Source of the DNA: a virus
IMG/VR virus record: IMGVR_UViG_3300037245_000806
Location: 32,001-96,000 of that record
Direction: 5' to 3' (one strand)
Length of the DNA stretch: 64,000 nucleotides
This document shows, in pieces, positions 545 to 45,837 of this stretch; the first letter of the stretch is position 1, and every line of letters starts with the position of its first letter. Position numbers and translations under genes: made by a program. Below the pieces are notes generated by a model. The model saw only the letters and a program-made list of their open reading frames with translations, searched no databases and was not told the DNA's origin.

Positions 545-1066
545 TTAGGCGAGGACGTTTCCGCCTGCGACCGGGATCGCCTTGTCGATGGTGAGCGTCA
601 ACGTGATGTTGATCGTGTCCTCACCCGCGAGGTCAACGTCGCCCGGATCGAAGCCCGAAGGCCAGCAACCGATGAGGTCGTACTGGCGGATGAACTCGCC
701 GTTGGGCGCGTAGAGTTCCGCCCAACCGTTCTTCGCGTACTCCCACTTGAGGCCAATCTTGCCGGTCTCAGGATCATACACGAGCTTGCGCCACGCGTGC
801 AGGATCGAGGACGTGTTCACAGGGACGTAGTCCTTGTAAAGCACGGACAGGTCGTCGAACGTCGGCAGGCCCGCGAACTTGCGCTTCTCGTTCACGTGCC
901 CAATCTCGACGATACCGTTCGTCACCTTCGGGAGAGGGAATGACGCCAGCGAGAGCGACAACTCCTCGTCACCCGGAAGATCGGCGAAGTGCAACACAGC
1001 GTTGTTTACGCGCTGCGGCTCCCAGCCCTGCGAACCGACATGGTCTGCTACAAGGGAAATCGGCAT
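545..1066 (-). CDS. Tail tube protein (T4 gp19-like)
   Basis: EPQRVNN, RKFAG, W...VYDP.TG.IG...YAK, GCWPS motifs; directly downstream of the sheath. Confidence 0.9.
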   Translation of the reverse strand: MPISLVADHVGSQGWEPQRVNNAVLHFADLPGDEELSLSLASFPLPKVTNGIVEIGHVNEKRKFAGLPTFDDLSVLYKDYVPVNTSSILHAWRKLVYDPETGKIGLKWEYAKNGWAELYAPNGEFIRQYDLIGCWPSGFDPGDVDLAGEDTINITLTLTIDKAIPVAGGNVLA

Positions 1067-24143: not shown

Positions 24144-25517
24144 TCAACTCACCCAATCAGCGAAATTCACAGCACTCTGTCGAGCTTCGGCGTCGGTCTT
24201 GATCTTACCGGCCTTCGCTCGCTGTTCCTTCTCCCAATCGTCCTGCTTGCCCATCTCCCAATCGCCGTGGTACGTCAGCTTCGGAAAGAACTTGTCGCCG
24301 ACACCAAAGCCACTGAAGGCACGGTGCGACCAGCCATACCACTTGCCGGTCTTCGCGCCCTTGCCGATGCTGGCCACCTCGTGACTCGAATGTGATTTCT
24401 CAGGCGTGATCTTGTACCGATTTCGGAAGTCCTTCGGATTGTCACGCCAATGCTTCTCGTCCAACGCGATGGGGAACATCACGTCTGCGCGCTCGGAAAT
24501 GAAGCGTGAGCCCCGAAAGCGAAACTGCTCAGTCGGGACGTATACGCCGTCCTGTTCGCGCTCGAAGAGGATGGACAAGTCGGGACGTGCATGGATGTAG
24601 TATTCGGTCGCAGGCTGCACTGACTCAACGATGAAATTAGACTGACCGGGGCGCAGGAAGAGCGGGCCTTCGACCACGGAACGATCCATCGCCTCGATGA
24701 TCGCCTCGGTGGTCCCATGCTTCTTCCCGGTCTTCTTGGCCTTGTACTTCTTGGCGTTGAACGGGGGCGGTACCTTAGGCTTGGGCCATTCGTTCTTCCC
24801 CGGCTTGTCGAACGTTCGCGTGGCGGGGTTTTGCTGCTTCTTGAGCCACGCCTTCCCGATAGGATTCTTCAACGGGCGCTTGAGGATACGCTGCCCAAGG
24901 TTATGTAGCTGCGGCTTGATAACCGCGACCCAATCGTCAACGCTCACGTCCACGTTGTTATCGACAATGCGCATGTTCTTCGGGCCGAAGAGCTTGGCGT
25001 ACTTCTCCATATTCCGGTGCGCGCCACGCCACGCATCTTCCACGAAGCTGTCGGGCACGAAACGTCCACCGGCTTCTTTGCGCACGCGGTTGCGTTCGAG
25101 CGCCTTCTCAAGTGACGTGGTCACGAAGACCATGAAGATGTCATAGCCGAGCGCCCTGAGTTTCCGGGCGGGTTTGGCAACGCGGTCATAGGCCCATGCG
25201 GTACCGTCGATGATGAGCCCGAGGCGTCGTTGAGCGTAGTGGCGCAACTCCATCTTCATGGCATCACGCGCCTTGGTGAAGAGCCCGTATTCTTTGCCGA
25301 CCTCGGCGGGGGGTATACCGGCGAATTTCATGTAACGCTCAAGGTGCTTGTCTGCGTTGATGATCTTGAGGCCCGCACCGCCGAAGAGCGCCGTGGATAC
25401 CAGCGACTTGCCTGCGCCACCAGCACCGGCGAGGAAGACGGCGCGTAGGGTATGCGAGTCGCGAAGCCCCTCAGAAACCACAGAGTCTTCGGACACGAAC
25501 GCCTCACTCAGACTCAT
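24144..25517 (-). CDS. Zeta-toxin-like P-loop kinase fused to a C-terminal KWYGWSHRA domain
   Basis: AVFLAGAGGAGKS, INAD, LIIDGT, GY..FMVFV.TSLE.ALERN..R. Confidence 0.8.
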   Translation of the reverse strand: MSLSEAFVSEDSVVSEGLRDSHTLRAVFLAGAGGAGKSLVSTALFGGAGLKIINADKHLERYMKFAGIPPAEVGKEYGLFTKARDAMKMELRHYAQRRLGLIIDGTAWAYDRVAKPARKLRALGYDIFMVFVTTSLEKALERNRVRKEAGGRFVPDSFVEDAWRGAHRNMEKYAKLFGPKNMRIVDNNVDVSVDDWVAVIKPQLHNLGQRILKRPLKNPIGKAWLKKQQNPATRTFDKPGKNEWPKPKVPPPFNAKKYKAKKTGKKHGTTEAIIEAMDRSVVEGPLFLRPGQSNFIVESVQPATEYYIHARPDLSILFEREQDGVYVPTEQFRFRGSRFISERADVMFPIALDEKHWRDNPKDFRNRYKITPEKSHSSHEVASIGKGAKTGKWYGWSHRAFSGFGVGDKFFPKLTYHGDWEMGKQDDWEKEQRAKAGKIKTDAEARQSAVNFADWVS

Positions 25518-29707: not shown

Positions 29708-29735
29708 AGAATAGCAATCGGTAACACAGTGTCAA
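29708..29735 (-). promoter_or_regulatory. Promoter TTGACA-N16-TATTCT whose -35 lies inside palindrome copy 5 (29721-29735)
   Basis: Minus strand reads TTGACACTGTGTTACCGATTGCTATTCT, with an extended -10 TG. Confidence 0.65.
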
Positions 29736-30903: not shown

Positions 30904-31620
30904 TTATCCTGCGAGTACCGCGCCGAAGCGCTGTAGTGTTTCCATGGCTTCCGCTGAGATAGCAAGCTTTGGCTTGCCGCCATAGAGCGCCGCGAACTTC
31001 TCCTGCTTCGTGAGCTTGAACTCCTTCATGAGCTTCACCACCATTGACTCGCCGTACTCTGACGGCGGAAGACTCTGCACAAGCCCCATACCGTGGGGAG
31101 GCTCCATACCAGCGCATGAATCCCAGACCACCCCGGCTGCCTGCTGCTGTATACCGAAGTTCTTCACATTCGTGACTATCGCCGCCATCATCTTGTCCTC
31201 GGCCTCGGCGAAGTCGATACCGCCCATGTGCGCCACGTCCTTGGGGAAGTGAACCTGCTTGAGCCCCGGCAGGATAGACTTCGGCAGGGACTTAACCGCA
31301 GACGCGTTACCGTACAAAACATCGTGTAGCTGCCCCTTGAAAGCTGAGGGATGATGCTGGCCGACGATCACCCCGGACGCTGTCTCCAACGCTTTCGCTT
31401 CCAGCCATGCCTTGGCAGCGGACTCAGTCATTTCCAGACACATCTGGTCATACGCGTGGTCGGTGATTGCGAAAAGCTCCGCGAGGCACTTGCCACCACA
31501 GTACAACCGATACTGCAAGGTACAGAGGGACATGCTGCCCACACACATGATATCGTAGCTGTTCCCCTGAAACACGAATGACTTCACAGACGTGCCCGGA
31601 AGCAGCTTGGAATGTGTCAT
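30904..31620 (-). CDS. Hypothetical motif-mosaic protein with the shared C-terminal tag
   Basis: 238 aa; ends ISAEAMETLQRFGAVLAG. Confidence 0.7.
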   Translation of the reverse strand: MTHSKLLPGTSVKSFVFQGNSYDIMCVGSMSLCTLQYRLYCGGKCLAELFAITDHAYDQMCLEMTESAAKAWLEAKALETASGVIVGQHHPSAFKGQLHDVLYGNASAVKSLPKSILPGLKQVHFPKDVAHMGGIDFAEAEDKMMAAIVTNVKNFGIQQQAAGVVWDSCAGMEPPHGMGLVQSLPPSEYGESMVVKLMKEFKLTKQEKFAALYGGKPKLAISAEAMETLQRFGAVLAG

Positions 31621-32135
31621 GAGTCGTCCTCCGATAGAACTGCACCGAAACGATTGAGCGTGCGCATGGCCATGGGCGTCAGGGCCTTGACGATCACAGC
31701 CTTCTCCTTCACCGTGACGTCCTTCTTGAAATCAATATCGCCCGGCGTGAACGTGAAGTCACCGGTAAAGGACACACGCACGTGCTCGTTGCCATGCATG
31801 AACTCGTACTGTGTCGGCCACAGTTTCATCAGACCACGCTCAGCAAGCACCTCACCCGCAGCATCGAGGTAGCAGAGCGTACCGTCCTGCTTGTGGCCTC
31901 CGCTGAGAATGGGCGGGTCGAATACTGTCTGCCGCCACTCCATGAGCTTCTGAAACTCCATCGAATCCGCAGGGACTATGACGCTAAGCTCAACGTCGGG
32001 GTCACGCTCTATGTACCCGCCGAGCGGATAAGGACAACCGGCGTAATTGGCCGGTGTGACCTCGAACACGTTGACGTCCAGCATCATCGGGACGCCAGCC
32101 ACGTCGGGCAACAGTAGTTTCAGTCCACTCGGCAT
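31617..32135 (-). CDS. Divergent tail-tube (gp19)-like paralogue with the shared C-terminal tag
   Basis: EWRQTVFDP...GHKQDGTL..LD..GE...R.L..LWP aligns by eye to 545..1066; ends LTPMAMRTLNRFGAVL. Confidence 0.7.
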   Translation of the reverse strand: MPSGLKLLLPDVAGVPMMLDVNVFEVTPANYAGCPYPLGGYIERDPDVELSVIVPADSMEFQKLMEWRQTVFDPPILSGGHKQDGTLCYLDAAGEVLAERGLMKLWPTQYEFMHGNEHVRVSFTGDFTFTPGDIDFKKDVTVKEKAVIVKALTPMAMRTLNRFGAVLSEDDS

Positions 32136-32143
32136 GACGGCTC

Positions 32144-32521
32144 CTAGCTTTCGAGGTACGCGCGCGCGTCGGTGCGCGGCTTGTTACTCCTGCGCGGCTT
32201 GCGAGTCTCGCGCCGCTTGTTCCGCTCCCGGCTCTTCTTCCGTTTCTCCCGGCAGGTCCGACAGTGCCTCGGGGGCACGAAATCATTCGTCGCGTAAAAC
32301 GCCTGATCCTTCTTGGACCATATGAAGGTGTTGTCGCAGGACTCGCACGTCATCCGCTTGCCGTCACCCTTCTGACTCTCGAAGGTAGTCTTGCGCACCT
32401 CGCGACAGGCCTTGCAACGCTTGGGCGTCTTGAACTTCTTCAGCGCGAAGAATGTCTGCTCGCTCTCGGTGTGTACGAATGCCTCCTGACAGTCCTCGCA
32501 AAAAATGGTTTGGTCCGGCAC
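32144..32521 (-). CDS. Tandem zinc-ribbon protein (CxxC...EQ.F....F..P.RCxxCR, two copies; zf-trcl-like)
   Basis: Two repeats of the motif and an Arg-rich tail. Confidence 0.8.
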   Translation of the reverse strand: MPDQTIFCEDCQEAFVHTESEQTFFALKKFKTPKRCKACREVRKTTFESQKGDGKRMTCESCDNTFIWSKKDQAFYATNDFVPPRHCRTCREKRKKSRERNKRRETRKPRRSNKPRTDARAYLES

Positions 32522-32523
32522 GG

Positions 32524-32685
32524 TCAATTGTCCTTTCCGGCGCATACCTCATGTATGAACCTTTGAAGAAATGGCACGCCGTCACGGTTCCATTTGCGCA
32601 CCTTGCGCATCCACTTCCGCTGGCGACGGCCCGCGCGCATTCGCTCGATGCCGCTCTCTCGAAGCTGTTCTGTGAGTGACTTCAT
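32524..32685 (-). CDS. Small basic protein (53 aa)
   Basis: My translation MKSLTEQLRESGIERMRAGRRQRKWMRKVRKW...; ATGA overlap with the upstream gene. Confidence 0.5.
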   Translation of the reverse strand: MKSLTEQLRESGIERMRAGRRQRKWMRKVRKWNRDGVPFLQRFIHEVCAGKDN

Positions 32686-34430
32686 TCTGAATCCTTCGGG
32701 GTCACGCCAAAGCGCTTGAGCGTAGCAAGGGCCTCCGGGCTCAGTGTGGCCTTGCTCGATATAGACATGGGTTGATGCGCTGGCGGTATGTGTACCCCCA
32801 TGAACGCGTCCGCTTTGAAGCCCATCAATTGCCCGCTGATAATACTCGCAATCGCGGGAGCATGCACGTCCTTGTTCTTGTCCGGTTCTCCGAACACCTT
32901 GATAAGCTCCTCGGTCGTCTTAATGACCTTCGTAGCTTTCAGCGGGAAGACGGTGTTGAAGTCGCTTTCCATCCCCGAGTCGAAATTACCATACGTCTGT
33001 TCCAGCGCCACCCGCAGCTTCGCAGCTATGCGAAACACCATGCGGGCCTTGAACTTTTCGTAGTCCTCCGGTGACGCTGTGTCAAGGTCGTCGAAGTCTG
33101 ACGCTATCTTTGCGTTGATCAAGATGTGCGCGGCGTAAAACGCTGACTTGCTCAGCGTGTCCATAAAGCCGAAGGCCGTATCCATGACGAACTCAGCACA
33201 CGCCACAGCCCACTTCTCACGCTCCATCGCCTCATTGAACACGTCGGGGGGCGTTGCATACGCGAACTCAGGCGACCACGGCACATTAACATAGCCCGGA
33301 GCCAAGTGCTTGAGCCCGACGACCTCGCCCGCCTTGTACCCCTTCGGCTCCACCCCAATCGCGCGCGCCTTCGCAGCGAGCATCGGGAATGACTTGTGTA
33401 CGGCAATCCACCAACTCGCGAGACGATCACGGTAGTCCTCGGCTATCTCCCCGTCGTACCGCTTCGGCACGAACTCAACGAAGTCCTTGAGCGATGTCTC
33501 ACCCAGCGCGTGTACCATCAAGTCATAGTGAACCTGCGCCACCTTACCGGCTGTGTGAACATAGGAGCCACAGCCTGTCAGCAGCGCATCCGGTACCGGC
33601 GTGTTCTTCACCTGATCTTCCAGCAACGACAGTGTTATATGGTCCGTGGTTGCGTCAGCAAGCATGAGGTACGCCTGCTCGGTCGGCGCAACCGTCAGCT
33701 TCGACGTCACCACACCAGCTGCTGCGTCAAGCATCTCCTCGGTGACAAAATCCGAAAGGTGCCCCACGAGCGCTCCCTTGGTGATGGACCCCCCAGACTC
33801 CGTAACAAAATCCGAGATTAGTTCCACGGGAATCTTCAGGGCGTTCGCCACTGCCTGTAGCTGCTTGGCGTTAAAGTGAAGGAAGTTATCCTGACCCTTC
33901 AGCGTGTTGCTGTAAATCTCCTGCGCACCTGCCTTGAGCTTCTCGTGAAAATACGCCTCATCCGCCTTGACGGCCTCGGAACTCGACAGCAGCTTCTTGT
34001 GCTTGCCCTTGGACCAGTGCTTCGCCACATGCTTCTTCCACGCCGCAATCGCCTGCGCCACGTCAGGGTCAAGCTCCGACACGTCGGTTTCCGTGACATG
34101 AACACCGGGCTTGAGGGATAGATTCTTCACCAACTCCGCATTGCACTCGACGTGATGGAAGTCGTCCGCAATCCCCACGCCCGGCGGTAAGTTGGTAGCA
34201 TCAAAGCCGCCACCGAATACACCGTCGAACTCGGGGAAGCCGGTCGGAATCGCTGTTTGGATAATCGCCTTCAGGTCAGCAAGTGAGGCAGGCTCCCCAA
34301 CGCATCCCTTGAGCGCCTGCCCCACCACTTTCTTGACCTTGGTGAGATTCGACTGTACGAACGCCTTGCCGCTGGCCTTCTTGAGCTTGGCCTTGAGACT
34401 CTTCGATGACTTCGGCTTCTTTGGCGGCAC
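32682..34430 (-). CDS. Hypothetical motif-mosaic protein (582 aa) with the shared C-terminal tag
   Basis: Ends LSPEALATLKRFGV; contains several short segments resembling core phage proteins. Confidence 0.75.
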   Translation of the reverse strand: MPPKKPKSSKSLKAKLKKASGKAFVQSNLTKVKKVVGQALKGCVGEPASLADLKAIIQTAIPTGFPEFDGVFGGGFDATNLPPGVGIADDFHHVECNAELVKNLSLKPGVHVTETDVSELDPDVAQAIAAWKKHVAKHWSKGKHKKLLSSSEAVKADEAYFHEKLKAGAQEIYSNTLKGQDNFLHFNAKQLQAVANALKIPVELISDFVTESGGSITKGALVGHLSDFVTEEMLDAAAGVVTSKLTVAPTEQAYLMLADATTDHITLSLLEDQVKNTPVPDALLTGCGSYVHTAGKVAQVHYDLMVHALGETSLKDFVEFVPKRYDGEIAEDYRDRLASWWIAVHKSFPMLAAKARAIGVEPKGYKAGEVVGLKHLAPGYVNVPWSPEFAYATPPDVFNEAMEREKWAVACAEFVMDTAFGFMDTLSKSAFYAAHILINAKIASDFDDLDTASPEDYEKFKARMVFRIAAKLRVALEQTYGNFDSGMESDFNTVFPLKATKVIKTTEELIKVFGEPDKNKDVHAPAIASIISGQLMGFKADAFMGVHIPPAHQPMSISSKATLSPEALATLKRFGVTPKDSE

Positions 34431-37180: not shown

Positions 37181-37251
37181 GCCCACCCCTCATGACGGTA
37201 ACACAATGCCACCGCCATATGCCTAGTAGTCTACAGCCATGATGCTCGATG

Positions 37252-37545
37252 TCAACCGAGGCGACCGAGGGTGCCCAGCGAAACGTTATCGTGGATGAAC
37301 ATGGCGATGTTCCCGACGTGCGCGGTACGCTTCGTAACCTCCGCGTCCACGCGCGCGAGGTCTTCCTCAGACTTGACGTGAGGGCGCTCCTCCAACGCAG
37401 TCCGCAGCAGGTGTGCCTGAGCTTCCAGCTGCGCGAGGTGGTCACGCAACGGAACGTCCTTGTACGGTACCGCCTTCTTCTCCTCCTCGTGTGAAACGAG
37501 TTCTGCTTCCATCCTGTCAGCGAATCGAGTTACTGCCGGTCGCAT
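37252..37545 (-). CDS. Small helical phage protein (degenerate MazG-like family)
   Basis: RFA..ME.EL...A.VGNIAMFI.D pattern. Confidence 0.5.
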   Translation of the reverse strand: MRPAVTRFADRMEAELVSHEEEKKAVPYKDVPLRDHLAQLEAQAHLLRTALEERPHVKSEEDLARVDAEVTKRTAHVGNIAMFIHDNVSLGTLGRLG

Positions 37546-38622: not shown

Positions 38623-39933
38623 TCAAACGTGGTGCCGAGTCTTCTTGAGTGGTCGCCGAAGCGACTCCATTGAGATACCTTCACGAAGCGCTGCCACAGC
38701 ACCCGCCGCTTCCATGTAGCTGTCCACCTGAATGCACGGCCCCACGAGGTCCGGGCGATTCTGCATCCAGTTGCGGTTCTTCACGAGAATCAACGGAATG
38801 CCCTGCGCGAAACACGCGAGTGTCGGCAGACCGAAGCACGTGTCAGGCATCACAACGCAGTCCACGTCGCTGGCATTGAGCACACCGGGGTCGTGGTATA
38901 TGTGATCGCCCATTGCAATCTGGGGAGCCTTGGCGAGCCCCTTCACAGTACAGTACGTGTAGTCGCCGACCGCTGCTTCAGAAGCCTTCCGAGGATCGAC
39001 GACCCCGTACAGCGCATCGGCTTCTTCCAACGTCGCCATGAGAGGTGCGTGGGCGACAGGCTTCCCGAGGAGCATCGTCATGGTGTGTGTCAACATCGCT
39101 TCGACACCACCCCACGGATTCACCATCTCAGCCGCCACCGTCATGTACGAATGCGCGCCGCCTTCAGGCATCGTAATCGGCGAGGAGATAGCAACCGTGT
39201 CGAAGTCGGACAGGAGTGGCTTGATGTGATCGCAGAGAACCCCAAGACCGTTGACCTCCCCGACCGCCGCACCGCTCTCCGTGTAGTCACTGCGCATCTT
39301 GAAGCCAATGTCCTTCGGGAGCACGAGAATCTCGGCCTCAATGCCGAGGACAGCGCGAGCGGCAGCAACCATGTTCCTACAGATATCAAGCACCCCGCCC
39401 TCCACGCCGCCGTCGAGGACGACCAGCACCTTGTTCGAGCGCACCGGAGTAAGCCCGCACGTCCCCATCAGGAAGCGCGTGAGAATGGAGCCCTCGACGT
39501 AAAGGGCATTCGACGGCATCTCATTGATCGCGGAGGAGTTCACGACGTTCGGATGCAGGATGAGGTTGTCGCAGATACTCCCGAGGAGGCGCGCGGCAGG
39601 CGTAGCGTCACCAGCGTGGCCCCCGACCTCAGCACCCACGCCGGTCGGTACGATCATCACCGCGTTGAAGCTGTTCGCCCTCGCGCCCATGCAGTGCTCG
39701 AACTCGAAGATGGAACTGAGGTGTCGGGGTGTCTCGCCATCATCCGGTGCCAGCGCACTGACGGAGTATTCGTAGCCGTCAACGTGCGGGTGGGAGCGGG
39801 TCACGAAGAAGCGGACAGGAGTACAGTCGCTCCCAACTGCCGCCTGCGCGCTCGCCGCCAACCGTTGCAGGATAGACGCTGAGGCCCTGCCCCACTTGCT
39901 GTCCATATAACTGCTGCACTCAAAGACCTTCAT
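38623..39933 (-). CDS. DUF3326-like protein
   Basis: IVPTGVGAEVGGHAGDA.P, ILHPNVVN, NALYVEG, NPWGGVEA..TH, AHAP and VDPR.A.E. Confidence 0.85.
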   Translation of the reverse strand: MKVFECSSYMDSKWGRASASILQRLAASAQAAVGSDCTPVRFFVTRSHPHVDGYEYSVSALAPDDGETPRHLSSIFEFEHCMGARANSFNAVMIVPTGVGAEVGGHAGDATPAARLLGSICDNLILHPNVVNSSAINEMPSNALYVEGSILTRFLMGTCGLTPVRSNKVLVVLDGGVEGGVLDICRNMVAAARAVLGIEAEILVLPKDIGFKMRSDYTESGAAVGEVNGLGVLCDHIKPLLSDFDTVAISSPITMPEGGAHSYMTVAAEMVNPWGGVEAMLTHTMTMLLGKPVAHAPLMATLEEADALYGVVDPRKASEAAVGDYTYCTVKGLAKAPQIAMGDHIYHDPGVLNASDVDCVVMPDTCFGLPTLACFAQGIPLILVKNRNWMQNRPDLVGPCIQVDSYMEAAGAVAALREGISMESLRRPLKKTRHHV

Positions 39934-44567: not shown

Positions 44568-44942
44568 TTACCCGCGCAGCCTGAAACGGCCCTTGTATTC
44601 AGGTAACACGCGACAAAGATTGCAGAGCAATCGAATATCGTCCGGGTTGTACGTGCTGGCCGTGCCAGAAACCTTCATTTGAACCTTACGAATACCGTAC
44701 CGGATACCCGAACGCTGGCACCCGGCACAGGGCTTCGTCTTTGGCTGCTCGCCCTCGTAGTGCGGCCCCATATCAAACATACGCCGCTCGATCTCAGTCA
44801 ACGAAGTTGCCAGAGCGATAGCCGCGTTCTCTATTCTGTCCCGCTCAGGCTGGTCCACCCTATGCAGATTCCGTTCGCACCATGTGTCGAGCTTAGTCGA
44901 TACCCAACCAAGGCCCGCTATGCGCTTCTTACTTTTCAGCAT
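44568..44942 (-). CDS. Hypothetical protein with a C-terminal Zn finger
   Basis: CAGC...LCNLC. Confidence 0.6.
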   Translation of the reverse strand: MLKSKKRIAGLGWVSTKLDTWCERNLHRVDQPERDRIENAAIALATSLTEIERRMFDMGPHYEGEQPKTKPCAGCQRSGIRYGIRKVQMKVSGTASTYNPDDIRLLCNLCRVLPEYKGRFRLRG

Positions 44943-45418
44943 CAGGCACCAAACCTTCCGTAGACCTCCCGCTGGAACTGTGCTTCGTTACCGCAGTTGT
45001 CAATGACCAGAAAGACACGAGCGTGCCCGCCTTCAATACCCAACTCTGCAAGTATCGCCTGACAACGGCGCATCGTCTTCACGCACCCCTCAGCCGACGT
45101 GAATTCGTTTAGCCAACGCTCAGGGATATGCACGCGCACGACGATGAAGAAGCTGTACTTGATGGCGTCCATGATATCGTCGGCTGTCGGTCGGGCAATG
45201 AAGCGGAGAAGCGCGCGCACCACCGCAGGCGTTGACCCAAGTAGTAATCTGTCATACTCAGCTTGCTGCTGGACACACGCCTTTGAGAGCCCCCACCCAT
45301 CGCCATCGTCAGACTCAGTTGCACGAGCCACGGTGGGCATTGGCGTTATCGCCCCCGGCATCGTGGCCATGCGCTGTACGCGCTCACCCCACGCCGGTCC
45401 TCTGGGTTCATCGGTCAT
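44942..45418 (-). CDS. Hypothetical protein, paralogue A
   Basis: Start MTDEP; aligns by eye with the adjacent gene. Confidence 0.65.
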   Translation of the reverse strand: MTDEPRGPAWGERVQRMATMPGAITPMPTVARATESDDGDGWGLSKACVQQQAEYDRLLLGSTPAVVRALLRFIARPTADDIMDAIKYSFFIVVRVHIPERWLNEFTSAEGCVKTMRRCQAILAELGIEGGHARVFLVIDNCGNEAQFQREVYGRFGA

Positions 45419-45837
45419 GCGCAGAATCCCGCGCGAACCTTCTCCTTGAACTCGTCGGCGGCAGTGCAGCTGTCGGCCATGAGGAAGACACGCGGATTTC
45501 CACCCACGATGTCCAACTCCTGTAGCATGGCCCGGCAGAGCTTGAACACCCGCAGCATGCCCTCTTCGGGCGTGAGTTCCTTGCGCCAATGTGACGGGAT
45601 GCGGATGCGCACGACGATGAACGTGTCGTCGGTAGTTGCGCGCTCGATGTCCTGCTTGGTTGGCCGGTCGATGAAGTGAACCCGCTTCGCGACGGCGGCA
45701 GCACTGGCCACCGGTGAGAGCGACTTGAATACCTGTATGAACTCGTGCTGCTGCTGGATGCATTCTAAGGACATGCCCATGCCCTCGTCATGATCGCCCT
45801 TGCACGTCGCGCGAGCCATCCCACGCAGTGTTCCCAC
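45415..45837 (-). CDS. Hypothetical protein, paralogue B
   Basis: Shares G.S..C.QQQ.E, FI.RPT..DI, FIVVR..IP..W and RVFL..D.C with paralogue A; start uncertain. Confidence 0.65.
   Translation of the reverse strand: MGTLRGMARATCKGDHDEGMGMSLECIQQQHEFIQVFKSLSPVASAAAVAKRVHFIDRPTKQDIERATTDDTFIVVRIRIPSHWRKELTPEEGMLRVFKLCRAMLQELDIVGGNPRVFLMADSCTAADEFKEKVRAGFCA

Follow-up and report, generated by a model that had tools for sequence, protein, structure and literature searches.

What is the short C-terminal segment that three adjacent and otherwise unrelated proteins of this virus have in common, and where did it come from? The three genes lie on the minus strand of the stretch analysed here, a window of 64,000 nucleotides corresponding to bases 32001-96000 of IMG/VR contig IMGVR_UViG_3300037245_000806 (143,033 bp, 58.7% G+C, estimated to be 98% complete). 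Nearly all genes are on that strand. A sequence-only reading had taken the segment, called the tag below, for an unrecognised free-standing signal for docking, localisation or degradation, appended to variable cargo. We find that it is not free-standing: to judge from sequence comparisons, the tag has been copied from the terminal helix that ends a DUF932 protein encoded in the replication module of the same phage, and it may act as a portable docking helix.

The shared C-terminal tag

The tagged genes belong to a block of nine genes flanked by a sigma-70-like promoter on each side:

30904..31620, minus strand, tagged orphan protein of 238 amino acids (aa); tag helix encoded at about 30907-30960
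31617..32135, minus strand, tagged orphan protein of 172 aa; tag encoded at about 31620-31682
32682..34430, minus strand, tagged protein of 582 aa; tag encoded at about 32685-32744

The three neighbouring open reading frames (ORFs) are as first described, and their tag is genuine and far beyond chance. The proteins have a common C-terminal core, A[ML]xTLxRFG[AV], placed 4-7 residues before the stop. The strict motif [LIVM][ST]xxA[LMIV]xTLxRFG[AVI] occurs exactly three times when the window, or the whole 143-kb genome, is translated in six frames, the copies lying 4, 7 or 6 residues before the stop. The back-translated tag pattern likewise matches the window three times, with 0.00 matches expected from 100 shuffles. 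When the tails of 116 minus-strand genes were compared with each other, the tagged pairs scored 47, 40 and 37, against shuffled maxima of 34-39. The remaining high-scoring pairs were only full-length paralogues or low-complexity tails. The same comparison also flagged a fourth protein, the DUF932 protein encoded outside the window.

Beyond the tag the bodies of the three proteins do not align, as had been claimed. BLASTP among them aligns only the last 16-18 residues, and by BLASTP and hhalign they are not full-length paralogues. The tags of the 238- and 172-aa proteins have the same degenerate amino acid at 9 of the 12 core positions, and at seven of these nine the codons differ; the RFG codons quoted in the sequence-only reading are also correct. 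Because the codons have diverged, the similarity is not that of a DNA repeat or of a recent gene conversion. With synonymous sites scrambled and amino acids kept, the copies are old and maintained by selection on the protein. A modular tag, conserved at the protein level on unrelated and variable bodies, is therefore supported.

DUF932 and the source of the tag

The phage is a very divergent T4-like myovirus. It encodes a Gp23-type major capsid protein, an S77 prohead protease, a tail sheath and a T4-type portal, with the major capsid protein being less than 30% identical to that of every deposited phage. Its replication module, placed outside the window, encodes in order an SNF2/DEAD helicase, a DnaB-like helicase, a primase, the DUF932 protein, a family A polymerase fused to uracil-DNA glycosylase, a single-stranded DNA-binding protein, a UvsX-like recombinase and a ParB-like protein. 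The order DnaB-primase-DUF932-PolA is constant across four related contigs.

The DUF932 protein, whose gene is conserved across the phage group at its place between the primase and the DNA polymerase, is 359 aa long and matches PF06067 with an E value of 1.5e-10 (41.7 bits, cut-off 23). Other genomes provide 35 homologues carrying PF06067. Homologues of about 45% identity or higher have native C-termini that read ...E[AS][LM]GYRTLV[RK]FGAVL[AT]N, and more distant ones have the looser tail ...L.R[FY]....

A hidden Markov model (HMM) built from foreign DUF932 tails only was compared with the 1,507 ORFs of the phage. Its own DUF932 protein ranked first (44 bits), followed by the 172-aa (E = 0.0086) and 238-aa (E = 0.026) orphans, both matched at their exact ends, and all other ORFs scored 4 bits or less. 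With the phage's own DUF932 tail as the query, the 172- and 238-aa tails scored 35 and 31 and the next ORF 22. Aligning the 33-sequence DUF932 alignment to each orphan with hhalign gave one match each, ungapped and end-to-end, over the last 17, 18 and 29 residues; the 29-residue match belongs to the 582-aa protein. By these comparisons the tag copies the DUF932 terminal helix over its last 12-18 residues, and over up to 29 in the 582-aa protein. The sequence relationship and the C-terminal position are established.

No DUF932 sequence beyond the terminal helix was found in the three tagged proteins by Pfam or in the hhalign matches, and the full-length DUF932 HMM matched the true DUF932 gene alone in the genome. 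While the tag matches the C-terminus of this phage group's subfamily of DUF932 (PF06067; TIGR03299, phage/plasmid-like protein), the tagged proteins are not members of the family, as only their last 17-29 residues align. A larger shared module of about 45 residues and two helices is unsupported, since longer profiles did not extend the match for the 172- and 238-aa proteins.

An AlphaFold2 (AF2) model of the DUF932 protein, made with the 33-sequence alignment, has a mean predicted local distance difference test score (pLDDT) of 91.6 and a predicted template modelling score of 0.84. The tail forms the final part of the model's last helix, residues 336-358, with a pLDDT of 86-95. Conservation in this helix lies on one face, E343, G346/Y347, L350, F353/G354 and L357, giving a small residue, an aromatic, Leu, Phe, Gly and Leu with a spacing of i, i+3/4 and i+7, and small residues at either end. 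In the orphan tags T349 and R/K352 are retained along with this face (A, M/L, L, F, G), and the tag is preceded by a flexible linker or by an S/T-P that starts the helix. For the 238-aa protein AF2 gave a model too poor for fold searches (pLDDT 45.9), in which the tag forms a separate terminal helix, residues 223-237, following a Gly/Pro/Lys linker.

Two further ORFs on the minus strand end in sequences reminiscent of the tag. A 53-aa ORF (32524-32685), whose start codon overlaps the stop of the 582-aa gene and which itself overlaps the start of a zinc-finger gene, has the tail ...FLQRFI.., a possible degenerate copy that is not significant in the tail HMM search. A 273-aa ORF (44942-45763) has ...YGRFGA directly before its stop, either a degenerate copy or chance, and is missed by the tail HMM.

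Around the DUF932 gene itself, the gap of about 650 bp to the polymerase gene (genome 135018-135675; 5018-5675 of locus L019) has no called ORF on the minus strand. In relatives a small 164-aa gene occupies the position between DUF932 and polymerase. An HNH endonuclease gene lies directly 3' of DUF932 in one locus (L143), and the replication helicase of a 144-kb relative from ENA contains an intein (L105, 3092-5704; Hom_end/LAGLIDADG matches).

An exhaustive HMMER search with the 238-aa protein against 1.84 billion representatives gave a single homologue, P0039, which retains the tag. It is encoded on a 1.5-kb ENA contig (L144) with the same gene block, part of which is also present in a second locus (L146). 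The block members with counterparts are:

32144..32545, minus strand, untagged 133-aa double treble-clef zinc-finger protein (Pfam zf_Tbcl, E = 9.8e-23); counterpart of 118 aa in L144 and L146, 58% identity
31617..32135, minus strand, 172-aa tagged protein; tag-ended counterpart of 47 aa in L144 and L146, made of only the last ~45 residues, 63% identity over the shared tail, body absent
30904..31620, minus strand, 238-aa tagged protein; counterpart of 228 aa (P0039), 31% identity in the body and 66% in the last 30 residues
29738..30553, minus strand, 271-aa protein, the best-conserved block member, with a PD-(D/E)xK-like motif, CPDH...(11 residues)...ECK, read from sequence only; partial counterpart in L144, first 149 residues, 70% identity over 148 residues

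The zinc-finger homologue is directly upstream of the 47-aa tag gene in both loci, the 47-aa tag gene is thus present in two samples, and the 271-aa homologue is directly 3' of the 228-aa tagged gene in L144. In these alignments the tag has held up as well as the conserved neighbours, and it is the bodies that diverge quickly or vanish. A tag kept in a second phage while the bodies diverge favors a functional, modular element. Of the grounds for rejection named in the sequence-only reading, neither loss of the tag in homologues nor full-length paralogy of the three proteins was observed. Both the purifying selection on the tag and its conservation in the second phage are established.

The tag is not widespread. 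The only complete relative compared is G004 (150 kb, capsid protein 65% identical), which lacks RFG-type tails and any other set of proteins with a common C-terminal tail. Its DUF932 tail has diverged, keeping the hydrophobic face but not the T, R/K, A and V, and nothing else in G004 is similar. The motif search that the sequence-only reading had proposed found the tag to be C-terminal at all three copies in this genome and absent from G004. The back-translated tag had one match in IMG/VR, out of frame, and 82 in metagenomes, none a C-terminal tag of a real gene, and a scan with TLxRFGAVL gave 36 matches, none real; as the patterns fix Arg as CGN, these scans can miss copies.

The bodies of the tagged proteins have few relatives. 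None of the three has a Pfam match, and the 238-aa protein also has none in PHROG or NCBIfam and no usable match to its body in an Atlas search. Among 5.8 billion proteins the 172- and 582-aa proteins each matched only themselves, and viral contigs scanned with the 582-aa sequence as a single query gave zero matches. The bodies do vary, as the term variable cargo implied, but two of them are not random, for they resemble the phage's own tail tube and UvsX-like recombinase.

Residues 64-143 of the 172-aa protein (31707-31946) are weakly similar to a 173-aa ORF in the tail tube position, adjoining the sheath gene (window 545-1066), with a pairwise E value of 1e-4. The likeness runs up to the start of the tag. 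The G004 homologue of this ORF gives E = 2.4e-4 and an HMM of the five-member tail tube family a marginal E = 0.06. The 172-aa body is thus marginally like a diverged piece of a tail tube protein.

For the 582-aa protein, the UvsX family HMM of the phage group matches the N-terminal ~77 residues (about 34200-34427) at profile positions 47-126, with E = 5.6e-5. BLAST against the phage's own UvsX-like protein gives collinear segments, the second of them weak (E = 0.016), and the RecA-like protein of G004 matches with E = 1.2e-4. There is no Walker A motif in the 582-aa protein; the GxxxxGKS that follows ...LGGG[WF] in the relatives is replaced by an unrelated stretch. The N-terminus looks like a diverged piece of the N-terminal region of a UvsX-like recombinase, the region that makes subunit-subunit contacts in RecA-family proteins. 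With a UvsX-like N-terminus and a DUF932-type tail, the 582-aa protein, whose modular make-up is established, would join the terminal modules of two replication/recombination proteins.

Docking as a proposed function, and its alternatives

Of the three functions suggested by the sequence-only reading, docking fits best. We give a probability of about one half to the tag being a portable docking or mimic helix aimed at the site of the DUF932 helix. The tag helix at the C-terminus of the accessory proteins would present the conserved face of DUF932, and the tagged, fast-evolving proteins would take up the packing site of the DUF932 helix or compete for it. One candidate site is in DUF932 itself, as an inter-subunit or helix-exchange site. 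An equally possible one is on a direct partner of DUF932 in the replication/recombination machinery. DUF932 itself is a serious candidate because the orphans keep its most conserved face and because in the 47-aa protein there is almost nothing else for the tag to pack against. We infer both the docking of the helix and its target from these patterns.

Several points weigh against docking. The helix may be purely structural rather than an interaction epitope, since in the DUF932 model, with its high pLDDT, it appears to be packed within its own chain. DUF932 has no clear relative in the PDB, by sequence (best E = 0.12) or by fold (best Z = 5.7), and the literature assigns it no function. The tag of the 582-aa protein lacks the final AVL and is missed by the tail HMM alone. 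Tagged proteins are known from only two phage lineages. G004, with a diverged DUF932 tail and no tagged orphans, fits docking but is a single data point.

As a concept, docking or mimic motifs common to several proteins are not new; the new element is a tag borrowed from DUF932. In T4, the C-terminal tails of gp43, gp33 and gp55 bind the gp45 clamp, and in T7 the acidic tails of gp2.5 and gp4 bind the gp5 polymerase. Like these, the tagged proteins are unrelated proteins of one phage with a common short modular peptide near the C-terminus, and one tag carrier is a core protein of the replication module. Unlike these, no clamp gene was found here, the tag motif is unrelated and not acidic, and in DUF932 it ends a folded helix rather than a flexible tail. 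In plasmid RK2, a conserved C-terminal region of KorA, TrbA and KlcB mediates cooperation with KorB. There too several proteins have a common C-terminal module, theirs contacting one hub of a mobile element, but the sequences are unrelated and nothing ties the tag to the ParB-like proteins of the phage.

If docking is correct, the last ~15 residues of DUF932 are marked as a functional epitope, and four to five proteins can be named that should share the binding site of its helix. DUF932, an uncharacterized family widespread in phages, plasmids and integrative elements, could then be approached through experiments on its interactions. The block would also be an example of orphan-gene assembly, with a constant module on bodies that diverge fast (31% identity), disappear, or have been exchanged for fragments of other core genes.

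Alternatively, the tags might be inherited remnants. New genes would have captured the 3' end of DUF932 and kept the helix only as a stabilizing C-terminal cap, with no common partner. The 29-residue match of the 582-aa protein to DUF932 suggests common descent over convergence, two of the bodies also resemble captured pieces of other phage genes, and the block is in a variable region without a G004 counterpart. However, the same helix face is kept on three unrelated bodies and in the 47-aa protein, which has almost no body to stabilize. The tail is also the best-conserved part of the 238-aa protein between the phages, 66% versus 31%, and with synonymous sites saturated the copies are old and have been maintained. 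We consider remnants unlikely.

A related and slightly less likely proposal extends the docking helix to mimicry. The block may encode chimeric interface mimics made from the phage's own UvsX N-terminus, a tail-tube-like body and the DUF932 helix, acting as decoys or poison subunits. Such mimics might blunt host immune sensors of these conserved phage proteins, act as regulators of the phage's own machinery, or sabotage the replication machinery of related phages in the same cell, and the 47-aa protein, with little beyond the tag, would be a minimal competitor. The orphan tags (RFGAVL) are slightly nearer to the consensus of other phages' DUF932 tails than is the phage's own tail (KFGAIL), which fits mimicry and proves little. 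A comparable case is BRCA2, whose BRC repeats copy a subunit-contact motif of RAD51. As in that case, a packing or contact segment of one protein recurs in other proteins, and the 582-aa protein has a RecA-family N-terminal region without the ATPase motif. The analogy is conceptual only, as both an inter-subunit role of the DUF932 helix and binding of the orphans to DUF932 are conjectural. If true, mimicry of this kind would be an unusual reuse by a phage of interface fragments from its own core machinery.

It is improbable that the tag is a packaging signal that sends the tagged proteins, together with DUF932, into the capsid or tail to be injected. In favor are the T4-like nature of the phage, which has a Gp23-type capsid protein and an S77 prohead protease, and the likeness of the 172-aa body to a tail tube protein. 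In common with encapsulin cargo-loading peptides and the T4 capsid targeting sequence, the tag is also a short terminal peptide on unrelated cargo in a setting of HK97-like or T4-type capsids. The T4 sequence, however, is N-terminal and removed at a protease site, while the tag is C-terminal. No [ILV]DE site, the putative motif of the prohead protease, is present in any of the three tagged proteins, versus 14 strict sites in a 2081-aa polyprotein and three in the protease. The source of the tag is also a protein of the replication module, in which the helix is part of a folded domain. T4-style cleavable localisation to the head is thus disfavored.

More improbable yet is a generic signal, either for C-terminal degradation, which has no positive support, or for membrane targeting by an amphipathic helix like the C-terminal helix of MinD. 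The tag is short and amphipathic, its basic and hydrophobic residues lying at the very end of the protein, and in the 238-aa model it is a separate terminal helix of low confidence. Such signals tolerate wide variation, though, whereas T, L, R/K, F and G do not vary between the copies and phages, and the same residues are in a confidently folded helix in DUF932.

A sliding-clamp-binding tail of the kind by which T4 gp43, gp33 and gp55, likewise unrelated proteins with a common short hydrophobic C-terminal tail, bind one hub is very improbable despite an L-x-x-F spacing that is loosely like a PIP box, as PF09116 and PF00712 are unmatched in the 98%-complete genome (the PF00712 control was positive in 11 of 14 genomes), the polymerase is of family A and the tag is unlike the bacterial QL[SD]LF consensus.

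The gene block and its surroundings

The two promoters that bracket the block are:

37228..37255, minus strand, sigma-70-like promoter at the head of the block: TTGACA, 16-nt spacer, TAGACT; 10 of 12 positions, a consensus match only
29708..29735, minus strand, sigma-70-like promoter just past the block, its downstream boundary; the -35 box overlaps a copy (29722-29734) of a palindrome found throughout the phage

The palindrome, TRACAC..TGTYA, has 32 matches with at most one mismatch, versus 2.4 expected, and the copy at 29722 provides the TTGACA -35 box of the promoter. The timing of expression of the block cannot be deduced from the promoters because the same type of promoter and palindrome also precedes structural genes.

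The tagged genes are in a variable region without counterparts in G004. The 271-aa protein has no Pfam match. Its distant homologues in G004 and another locus (L145) have untagged neighbors, so the gene is not strictly linked to the tag. The C-terminus of the 271-aa protein, ...SLRKFWRLL.., weakly echoes the tag with a score of 22, which is not significant.

Outside the block, a 457-aa protein (24144-25517, minus strand) combines a zeta-toxin/AAA_33-type kinase with a C-terminal Tad6, a Thoeris inhibitor (Pfam E = 2e-25). It adjoins two DNA methylases, one of them fused to a ParB N-terminal domain. Together the 457-aa protein and the methylases resemble an anti-defence cluster, placed immediately upstream of the block with the tags. 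Further along the window, a 436-aa protein (38623-39933, minus strand) has a full-length DUF3326 domain (E = 9e-78), a family unexpected in a phage.

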